A stretch of DNA of 61,359 nt, taken from Candidatus Bipolaricaulia bacterium. Its GTDB lineage: Bacteria > Bipolaricaulota > Bipolaricaulia > RBG-16-55-9 > DRXL01. Shown piece after piece: positions 55,397 through 58,300 of the stretch. The notes beneath the pieces are model-generated. The model ran no database searches and was not told the origin of the DNA. It saw only the letters and a program-made list of their open reading frames with translations. Numbering within the stretch: position 1 is the stretch's first letter; each line of letters begins with the position of its first letter. The DNA lies in assembly GCA_046293845.1 (NCBI GenBank), contig JBKBIX010000001.1, positions 1 through 61,359 on the forward strand, written 5' to 3'. Position numbers and translations under genes: made by a program.

Positions 55397-58300
55397 ATGG
55401 CAATGGGAAGGATCGTGAAAGTCTCAGGGCCGCTGGTCGTGGCCGAAGGGTTGACCGACGCGAAGATGTACGACGTCGTCCGGGTAGGCAAGGAGAGGCT
55501 CGTCGGCGAAGTGATCGTGTTAGACGGGGATTTGGCTTCGATCCAAGTCTATGAAGAGACCGCGGGTCTTGGGCCGGGCGACCCCGTCGAGGGCACGGGC
55601 GAGCCCCTGTCAGTAGAACTGGGTCCTGGCTTGATCGGGTCTATTTATGACGGGATTCAGCGCCCGTTGGAAGCTATTCAAAAGAAGTGGGGCGCGTATA
55701 TTCGTCGGGGGGTCGAGGCCCCTGCGCTCAATAGAGCCGTGAAATGGCGCTTTGTCCCCACCGTGAAGAAGGGCGATTCTGTCAGCGAAGGGGATATTAT
55801 TGGGACGGTGCAAGAGACCACGCTCGTCACGCAGAAGATCATGATTCCACCGGGGCTGTCTGGGACTATCGAAGAGATCAAGTCTGGGGAGTTTACTGTT
55901 GAGGAGCCCATCGGGATTGTGAAGGACGTGCGGGGGAAGCGCCATGAGCTGAAGCTGCTGCAGCGCTGGCCGGTGCGCAAGGCCCGCCCGTATAAAGAGA
56001 AGCTGCCCAGCACCGAGTTGCTGACGACAGGGCAGCGCATTGTAGACACGCTCTTCCCCATTGCGAAGGGGGGCACAGCGTGCGTGCCGGGGCCGTTTGG
56101 GTCGGGCAAGTGCGTAGTGGGCGAGACACCTGTGCTCTTAGCTACAGGGGAGATCCTCCCCATCGCGCAGCTCTATGAGCGCTACGCCCGGCAGCTTGGA
56201 GAGAAGACTATACTCTCCGATGATGGTCTAGAGCAGATAGTCGAAGGCCCTGAGCTGCCGGAGCTTTTTACGCTGGGGGAGAGCGGCTTTGTCAGGGCCA
56301 AGCCATCTTTGCTCTATCGAGCTATAGCCCCCATGACGGTGCGCGTGCGCACGCGGGGCGGGCGCACAGCCGAGACGACCCTGCAACACGAGTATCATGT
56401 CGTAGGCTCAGATTGGCAGGTACGCCGTGTGCCCGCGGGCTCCCTCAAGGCTGGGGATCGCATCTTAGTGCCGCGCCGCATTCGCATAGATTCAGCAGCG
56501 CCAGTGCGCATGAACGCCTTTCAGCTCTTAGCTGATGAAGACTCGATCTATGTCGCCGACCCTCAGATTCTTAAGCTCTGCGCTGATACTCTAACTAAGC
56601 TGCACAGGGAAGAGCGCTGGCCTGATCTGGAGATCTCAAAAACAGCGCTCTACGGCTATCGCGCAGGGCGCAATCTCCCCTCTGTGCCACTATGCAAGAG
56701 AATTCTAGAGAGCGCCGGCATAAACACTTGTGAGCTGCCCCTGCGCGTGATCACAAGCAAGACCTCAGGCAAGCACGTTCACGTGCCGGAATACTTCACG
56801 GAAGAGCTTGCAGAGTTCTTAGGGCTGCTCAGCTCCGACGGCACGGTGGACTCTGATTACGTGGGCCTGCGCAACACCGATCCGGCGGTACTGGCGCGCT
56901 TTGCGGAGCTAGGGCGTCAGCTCTTTGGGCTAGAGCCGATGGTCTGCGAGCACGGGGAGGACTATCGTTTCAGCAGTCGTGCCTTGGCACGCTTGGTCGG
57001 CAAGCTCTTAGGGGTAACGCCGGGGCAGAGCCGCAAGCGAGCCCAAGCCGTACCTCCGCCGATCATGATTGCCCCCGAGGCACTCATCACTGCATACCTG
57101 CGCGGCTACTTCCACGGTGATGGCTCCATAAGCAAGCGCGAACTCTACTTCCCTACCGCGAGCGAGCCCATGGCTTTAGGGCTCGCATGGTTGCTCGTGC
57201 GCCTGGGAATCATCTATCGAATTGAGCGCCGTCTCGGCCCTCAAGGCGCACTGCACTATCGTGTGGTCATCCCTGGCAAAGAATACTGTCAGCGCTTCTT
57301 AGCTGCTATTAAACCCCTTGCTCAAGCGCGCCGCACGGCACGCGCCTATGAGATGCTCAACGCGATCGCGTTCACGAAGCTTGGCGTTGATGCTGTACCT
57401 TCCAACGGGTTGCTGCCGGAGCTGCTACACGCCCTCCAGGTCAAGCCGACCCTTCTCGAGCGTGAGCGCATTTACATCTACGACTACCTCAAGACCCACC
57501 GTATCCCGACAGCGAAGTTCCGCAGGATGGCTGAGCTGCTCTCAAGCCCGGTGGCTCTCGCCGAGCCGGCAGCGTCAGCTCAGAGCGATCTGCTCCGATT
57601 GAGTCAGCTCTTAGAGCACGTCTATCTGGACGAGGTCGTCTCCGTAGAGGTGCAGCCAGGCCCCAAGCCCGTCTATGACTTCACCGTCCCACAAACGCAT
57701 AATTTTGTCGCGAGTTTCGGGTGGATCATCAATTCGAATACTGTGATCCAGCACCAGTTAGCGAAATGGGCCGATGCCGACATTATTGTATTCGTTGGCT
57801 GTGGCGAGCGCGGCAACGAGATGACCGACGTCTTGATGGAGTTCCCAGAGCTCACAGACCCCAAGACCGGCGAACCCCTGATGAAGCGCACTATTCTCAT
57901 CGCGAACACGTCGAATATGCCCGTCGCTGCCCGCGAAGCGTCGGTCTACACGGGAATCACTATTGCTGAGTACTTCCGAGATATGGGCTACAGCGTCGCG
58001 CTGATGGCCGATTCGACGTCGCGCTGGGCCGAAGCGATGCGCGAGATCTCTGGGCGCTTGGAGGAGATGCCCGGTGAAGAGGGCTACCCGGCGTATCTGG
58101 GGTCGCGCACAGCAGATTTTTACGCACGCGCTGGACGTGTCGTTTGTTTAGGCAAGCCCGAACGACAAGCGAGTTTGAGCGCCATCGGCGCGGTCTCGCC
58201 GCCGGGAGGCGATCTCTCTGAGCCCGTCACCCAGAACACTCTGAGATTGGTGAAGGTCTTCTGGGGGTTGGACGACAAACTCGCCTATAGAAGGCACTTC

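Follow-up and report, generated by a model that had tools for sequence, protein, structure and literature searches.

How does the catalytic subunit of an ATPase remain functional when its phosphate-binding loop is interrupted by more than five hundred residues, and does an unusual residue at the end of the insert stand in the way of its removal? These questions arise from a 61,359-nucleotide stretch of DNA (hereafter, the window) from a Candidatus Bipolaricaulia bacterium, comprising positions 1 to 61,359 of the forward strand of contig JBKBIX010000001.1 in assembly GCA_046293845.1, a 1.51-Mb metagenome-assembled genome (MAG) that is 84% complete. On the plus strand, atpA, the gene for the A (catalytic) subunit of a V/A-type ATPase, forms an open reading frame (ORF) of 1138 codons plus stop at 55397..58813, stop-free and without frameshift, with GGAGGG lying 5' of its ATG; Pfam finds the ATP-synt_ab domain of this precursor in two pieces, with intein domains between them. 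The original prediction, made from the letters alone, described a 543-residue intein that splits the Walker A motif and saw in its Ser-Asn end, where His-Asn is usual, a reason to test whether it splices. Our analysis points with high confidence to a live, splicing-competent class 1 intein of the VMA-b allele with an intact LAGLIDADG homing endonuclease, inserted at the Walker A Lys/Thr junction (a slash marks insertion and splice junctions throughout) of one of two A subunits in a bacterial host.

The boundaries of the insert could be read from alleles that lack it. In the precursor, the Walker A sequence GPFGSGK ends at residue 238 and the insert occupies residues 239–781 (543 residues, 1629 bases), beginning with Cys and ending in GWIINSN before a Thr; CGERGNEM starts 20 residues past that Thr, a spacing that the original prediction had given exactly. 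Thirteen other species of the host genus were available for comparison, ten of which carry an orthologous atpA without the insert, with an open frame of about 600 residues and a C-extein 91–97% identical to that of the window. These ten empty-site orthologues read GPFGSGK/TVIQHQ (with one variant, AEADI), which amounts to the window's two flanks joined. Because their flanking peptides are identical, the insert can be delimited to exactly 1629 bases at 56111–57739, placing a 238-residue N-extein that ends in Walker A GPFGSGK before it (55397..56110, plus strand) and a 357-residue C-extein plus stop after it (57740..58813, plus strand), the latter starting with Thr+1, which is the Walker A Thr itself. 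The ORF and the empty-site orthologues thus agree with the predicted split between Lys and Thr. Were the intein to stop at IIN, making Ser the +1 residue, two extra residues would stay in the P-loop; none is seen, and this boundary was rejected. An alternative C-terminal boundary with a normal, hidden His-Asn, raised in the original prediction, was looked for in the same empty-site alleles; they join GSGK to TVIQ, and the boundary stands.

Having delimited the insert, we examined its identity. Pfam profiles matched LAGLIDADG_3 (E = 1.9e-16) and Intein_splicing (E = 6e-11), and phmmer against solved structures gave the TliVMA intein (7QSS) as the best match (E = 9.7e-31), along with 7QSU, PhoVMA (7QST) and the TvoVMA mini-intein (4O1S). 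The Pfam and 7QSS matches lie well outside what chance would produce. A homologue search covering 5.8 billion proteins recovered 49 other A subunits that contain a related insert, and in all 48 homologues that reach the CGERGNE motif the insert lies at the same K/C...N/T position, 20 residues before it. Earlier work distinguishes site VMA-b (b), at Lys240/Thr241 in P. horikoshii numbering and occupied in Thermococcales and Thermoplasmatales, from site VMA-a (a), at Gly260/Cys261 and occupied in yeasts only (PMC2814812, PMC8966425). The original prediction correctly recognized the window's insertion as the Pyrococcus-type P-loop site; its assignment of the Thermoplasma inteins to the yeast site does not hold, since the literature places Thermoplasmatales at site b and the Thermoplasmata homologue P0025 likewise reads GPFGSGK/C...LHN/T. 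Judged by its sequence, the insert is assigned to the known VMA-b (vma-1b) allele as a class 1 intein with a predicted LAGLIDADG endonuclease.

The comparison with known relatives sharpens this assignment. The window intein shares with TliVMA, PhoVMA and TvoVMA the host protein, the P-loop Lys/Thr site, Cys1 and Thr+1, shows the VMA-b domain arrangement, with the accessory region and then the LAGLIDADG endonuclease lying between the two parts of HINT, and groups in one tree with 36 His-Asn-type inteins of the same site. Unlike the archaeal VMA-b inteins, it has a bacterial host, as predicted, measures 543 residues rather than 376–429, shows only about 20–30% identity to them, carries penultimate Ser instead of His, and falls in a separate, well-supported clade whose hosts have a TVIQHQ-type C-extein. 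The yeast Sce VMA1 intein (PI-SceI) resides in the same host protein family and has the same class 1 and LAGLIDADG endonuclease design, but is inserted 20 residues downstream at G/CGERGNEM, is followed by Cys+1, ends in His-Asn and represents a different allele.

The intein (56111..57739; all of its parts lie on the plus strand) retains each element that the original prediction had listed—Cys1, TLQH, two LAGLIDADG motifs, block F, the Ser-Asn end and Thr+1—at the place given for it. The N-terminal half of the HINT domain (residues 1–127; 56111..56491) contains block A with Cys1 (56111–56140) and block B (56357–56404), which comprises T90-L-Q-H93 together with a clade-specific His96; Cys1, Thr90 and His93 are invariant in an 11-sequence alignment. 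An accessory or DNA-recognition region (residues 128–219; 56492..56767) separates HINT from the nested endonuclease domain (residues 220–400; 56768..57310), which was delineated by Pfam, homology and Foldseek and in which both LAGLIDADG motifs carry the catalytic acidic residue: Asp243 in motif 1 (residues 233–245; 56807–56845) and Asp337 in motif 2 (residues 327–339; 57089–57127; YLRGYFHGD337G). Past the endonuclease core, a helical region defined on the AlphaFold2 model (residues 401–499; 57311..57607) leads to the C-terminal part of HINT (residues 500–543; 57608..57739). There, block F (residues 521–534; 57671–57712; VYD523FTVPQTH530NF) supplies Asp523 (F:4) and His530 (F:13), and block G (GWIINSN; 57719–57739) closes with Ser542 (TCG; 57734–57736) and Asn543 (AAT; 57737–57739), followed by the ACT codon of Thr+1. 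The catalytic residues C1, T90, H93, D523, H530, N543 and T+1 are all present; block G has its Asn543 and Thr+1, with Ser at the penultimate position where His is usual.

Structure prediction is in keeping with this anatomy. An AlphaFold2 model of the intein alone, built on the 11-sequence alignment, reached a mean predicted local distance difference test score (pLDDT) of 88.5 and a predicted template modeling score (pTM) of 0.90. Foldseek against the PDB returned 7QSS at the top (E = 1e-30; template modeling (TM) score 0.78 on the target), then PI-PkoII, PhoVMA and PI-PfuI, with PI-SceI far lower (E about 1e-8). The HINT fold was recovered through Foldseek matches to solved inteins, including mini-inteins, with a root-mean-square deviation of 2.6–3 Å over about 125 columns.

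The penultimate serine proved to be a property of a lineage. Among the 49 same-site inteins, including that of the window, 36 end in His-Asn and 13 in Ser-Asn; the last letters of the latter are (I/V)NSN in the group to which the window's intein belongs, HSN or QSN in the three sequences from Actinomycetota, and ASN in the single one from a Bathyarchaeia MAG. In an intein tree computed without the last four residues, the 13 Ser-Asn inteins form one clade (Shimodaira–Hasegawa-like approximate likelihood ratio test, SH-aLRT, 100), implying a single change; its members are 38–87% identical and live in hosts from Bipolaricaulota, Actinomycetota and Bathyarchaeia. All eight members with available DNA encode the Ser as TCG or TCA, and the adjoining Asn and Thr codons differ synonymously; a change from His to Ser takes two base changes; and the 12 other sequences, from independent assemblies, show the same xSN/T end. 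Being clade-wide, with this codon pattern and with two base changes needed, the serine is old and maintained, representing neither an error nor recent damage. A sequencing error at the Ser codon was ruled out on the same two points, the two base changes and the 12 concordant sequences.

Nor is such a residue foreign to inteins at large. We surveyed the 149 most similar 50%-cluster representatives, recognizing intein ends by their block F/G pattern, and found the penultimate residue in 180 recognized ends to be His in 173, Ser in three and Lys in two; penultimate Ser is rare but recurrent. Reportedly, Chen, Benner and Perler (2000) found the Mja PEP and RpolA' inteins to be functional without a penultimate His. 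His is the usual residue at this position (G:6) but not a requirement; some other residue stands there in about 5% of functional inteins, and reverting G:6 to His improves some inteins and harms others (PMC4031507). Mycobacteriophage inteins studied by Kelley et al. carry Gly, Lys or Ser there, and an upstream block F His can substitute (PMC5050341). Npu DnaE, a widely used intein, ends in GFIASN/CFN (PMC5092047) and has a splicing half-life no longer than one minute (PMC4031507); Ssp DnaE has Ala at G:6 and relies on the assistance of Arg B:11 in Asn cyclization (PMC4031507). The window intein resembles the Npu and Ssp DnaE, phage, and Mja PEP and RpolA' inteins in combining a non-His G:6 with a retained terminal Asn; these inteins are, however, unrelated alleles in other host proteins, and, unlike Ssp DnaE, the window intein lacks Arg B:11, with Glu94 in its place. 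Doubts about splicing on account of the Ser lose their force: it is fixed in a clade under purifying selection, and the intein falls within the roughly 5% of functional non-His inteins. Most likely, to judge from these comparisons, the window intein works normally despite its Ser.

The splicing pathway we propose follows the class 1 scheme. The precursor would be translated whole; Cys1 would make a thioester, the N-extein would be passed to Thr+1, and Asn543 would then cyclize, releasing the intein and re-forming the P-loop as GPFGSGK-T. The job of the missing helper His would probably fall to block F His530 (F:13), perhaps together with the clade-specific His96 of block B. His96 is shared by the Ser-Asn clade, apart from an Arg in its Bathyarchaeia member, and is replaced by Phe in 31 of the 36 His-Asn relatives; it lies in the same block as Arg B:11 of Ssp DnaE.

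Selection was gauged by the ratio of nonsynonymous to synonymous substitution rates (dN/dS) against two full-length relatives whose inteins are 87% and 80% identical to that of the window. The ratio is 0.11–0.12 over the whole intein and 0.04–0.09 over the exteins, and within the intein it is 0.09–0.12 for the N-terminal HINT half, 0.17–0.22 for the accessory region, 0.08–0.09 for the endonuclease and 0.01 for the C-terminal HINT part, this last value coming from one comparison, the other being saturated. Intein and exteins are both under strong purifying selection. An A subunit stuck with its intein would be dead, and its exteins would be expected to lose constraint; selection on intein and exteins together lends indirect support to splicing.

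The distribution of the intein adds a mobile dimension to this picture. Of 184 species genomes from the phylum, just three contain the Ser-Asn lineage; these are the window's own and two more from its genus, of which 14 species were compared. In a tree of C-exteins, alleles carrying the intein are interleaved with alleles lacking it, requiring eight changes by parsimony, at least four of them forced by well-supported branches, and the C-extein of the intein-free allele in genome G077 is identical to that of the intein-bearing P0007. In homing, the endonuclease would cut intein-less alleles and the intein would be copied in, which would explain its patchy presence in the genus. The TliVMA endonuclease domain has both LAGLIDADG Asp residues and is active, whereas PhoVMA is without them and inactive (PMC8966425); the window intein has both, like TliVMA and unlike PhoVMA. 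Among its relatives, P0006, P0007 and P0008 carry deletions of 62–67 residues in the accessory region, and P0013 combines a larger deletion with a change of a LAGLIDADG Asp to Ala; these four match the phase of decay expected in a homing cycle. Interleaving of alleles and a dN/dS of about 0.08 on the endonuclease domain lend indirect support to cleavage and homing. The interleaved alleles and the intact endonuclease, whose activity we infer, are those of a classic homing element that is apparently still cycling.

The atpA gene is part of a V/A-type ATPase operon with subunit order I-K-E-C-F-A-B-D (about 50688–60917 of the window). The host genome (G000) encodes a second such operon on contig C136 (about 1568–8702, minus strand) with genes resembling those for C, F, A, B and D; the A subunit of this second operon (sequence GPFGSGKTVTQQALAKW) is without intein, reading GPFGSGK/TVTQQALAKW, and its C-extein is 62% identical to that of the window. 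An alpha/beta pair of an F-type ATP synthase did not turn up in the 84%-complete assembly. The original prediction held that the ATPase cannot work unless the intein is excised, which stands insofar as the precursor would be unable to bind nucleotide normally before removal; the affected enzyme is, however, not the cell's only V/A-ATPase. Genomes G104 and G105 belong to a different family within the order; their second atpA paralogue (L009 on C6 and L010 on C196, respectively) carries a His-Asn-type VMA-b intein, CIWGDGPVLL...MILHN/TVMQQ. Two different lineages of this allele have therefore invaded the two atpA paralogues at one and the same site.

Several explanations compete with a working intein at this locus. 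The replacement of His by Ser might cripple Asn cyclization, leaving a decaying intein that splices poorly or never, so that the window atpA is dead and the C136 operon does the work. The rule that G:6 is His, seen in 173 of the 180 recognized ends, speaks for such a defect, as do the intein-free paralogous operon and the endonuclease decay in relatives P0006, P0007, P0008 and P0013. A dead gene would nonetheless be hard to reconcile with exteins that keep a dN/dS of 0.04–0.09 and intact P-loop halves in intein-bearing alleles, with a C-terminal HINT value of 0.01, with a Ser fixed over a deep clade in independent assemblies and three phyla, and with the documented functional inteins bearing Ser or other penultimate residues; we consider a crippled intein improbable. 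Alternatively, the Ser might tune the splicing rate and make the intein a conditional switch, responsive to temperature, redox or pH, for one of the two V/A-ATPase paralogues. Penultimate changes do alter splicing rate and precursor build-up in other inteins (PMC5050341, PMC4031507), two paralogous operons are kept with one interrupted, and the Ser variant is stably retained. The sequence, however, bears no sign of regulation, patchiness among near-identical alleles fits a selfish homing element better than a domesticated regulator, and ten of the 13 sister species are intein-free, so that a switch is hardly a likely explanation either. The boundary could also have been misplaced, with a true end at HN or at IIN before a Ser +1, or the Ser could be an assembly or sequencing error; nothing but the rarity of Ser at the position favors this, and the GSGK-TVIQ junction of the empty-site alleles, the 12 concordant sequences and the two base changes refute it, reducing its probability to practically nothing.

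Some observations weigh against the splicing-competent homing intein that we favor. The host is uncultured and known from an 84%-complete MAG, and splicing and endonuclease activity are inferred here from sequence. With an intein-free second V/A-ATPase operon on C136, loss of the window copy might be tolerated for a while. His530 and His96 are likewise putative as compensating residues, and His96 is only one of 23 HINT columns (Ser542 included) that separate the two clades; because all of these trace to one event, His96 is a lead rather than a result. In the intein-only AlphaFold2 model, the last 11 residues have pLDDT below 50, to which we attach no meaning because the deeper run places them: a model of the whole precursor on a 45-sequence alignment formed the block G strands at pLDDT of about 92. 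The same precursor model scores below pLDDT 50 for the two halves of the P-loop and for portions of the extein nucleotide-binding core. Going further than the working homing intein just weighed, the Ser-Asn lineage could be a distinct branch of VMA-b, so far mainly bacterial, in which Asn cyclization has been rewired through His96 and/or His530 and condition-dependent splicing gates one of the two V/A-ATPase paralogues, rather than a purely selfish element; taken as a whole, we offer this as a speculation with long odds against it.

The host genome is rich in inteins, with at least eight in 1.5 Mb: two in one ORF on C142, one in DnaB on C160, one on C118, two in ribonucleotide reductase on C95, and those of SpoVR (39450–40643) and AtpA in the window. 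The second ribonucleotide reductase intein on C95 ends in LIVSN/S and has Lys in place of the block F His. We considered the SpoVR (39939–40643) and AtpA inteins as close paralogues and rejected this, as tblastn found them 25.5% identical across the endonuclease and the C-terminal part, no more than the AtpA intein's match to the DnaB intein of C160 (27.6%), and relatives of the AtpA intein in other genomes reach 87% identity. Spread of inteins within the genome would thus find no support in the SpoVR/AtpA comparison.

Other observations concern related genes elsewhere and the annotation of the locus itself. In P0010, the B subunit encoded on the same contig (L038:6422-9229; 935 residues) also has a LAGLIDADG intein, at DMTNY/C...GLIVSN/CEALREV, with a penultimate Ser and with Cys at the intein +1 position where AtpB of the window has Ala. 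An AAA-type ATPase (L013; G105:C224) has its P-loop interrupted by a related LAGLIDADG intein, GPPGCGK/C...IVTHN/T, that is 34% identical to residues 222–543 of the AtpA intein. The public gene call for the window contig (P0001, 898 residues) begins at a GTG at window position 56117, which is residue 3 of the intein; with its start inside the intein, it omits the N-extein wholly, leaving atpA mis-annotated in the source collection and illustrating how easily intein-interrupted genes of this kind are mis-annotated.

Nothing is new about the insertion site, the allele, the fold or the type of endonuclease, functional variants without the His were known before, and the finding leaves the known workings of inteins unchanged; what it adds is that the hosts of this allele include bacteria and that it has a stable branch ending in Ser-Asn. 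Bacterial hosts of vma-1b may already be on record: a later paper (PMC4071816) cites Swithers et al. 2013 for the transfer of inteins 'across phyla and domains'. The literature searched contained no intein linked with Bipolaricaulota. A textbook allele, archaea-only in the literature examined, is now extended to bacterial phyla, and with it comes a natural variant, stable over evolution, in which Ser replaces His at a catalytic helper position and which can be compared with close relatives that have the His—a combination useful both for intein enzymology and for tracing gene flow in uncultured subsurface or thermal lineages.

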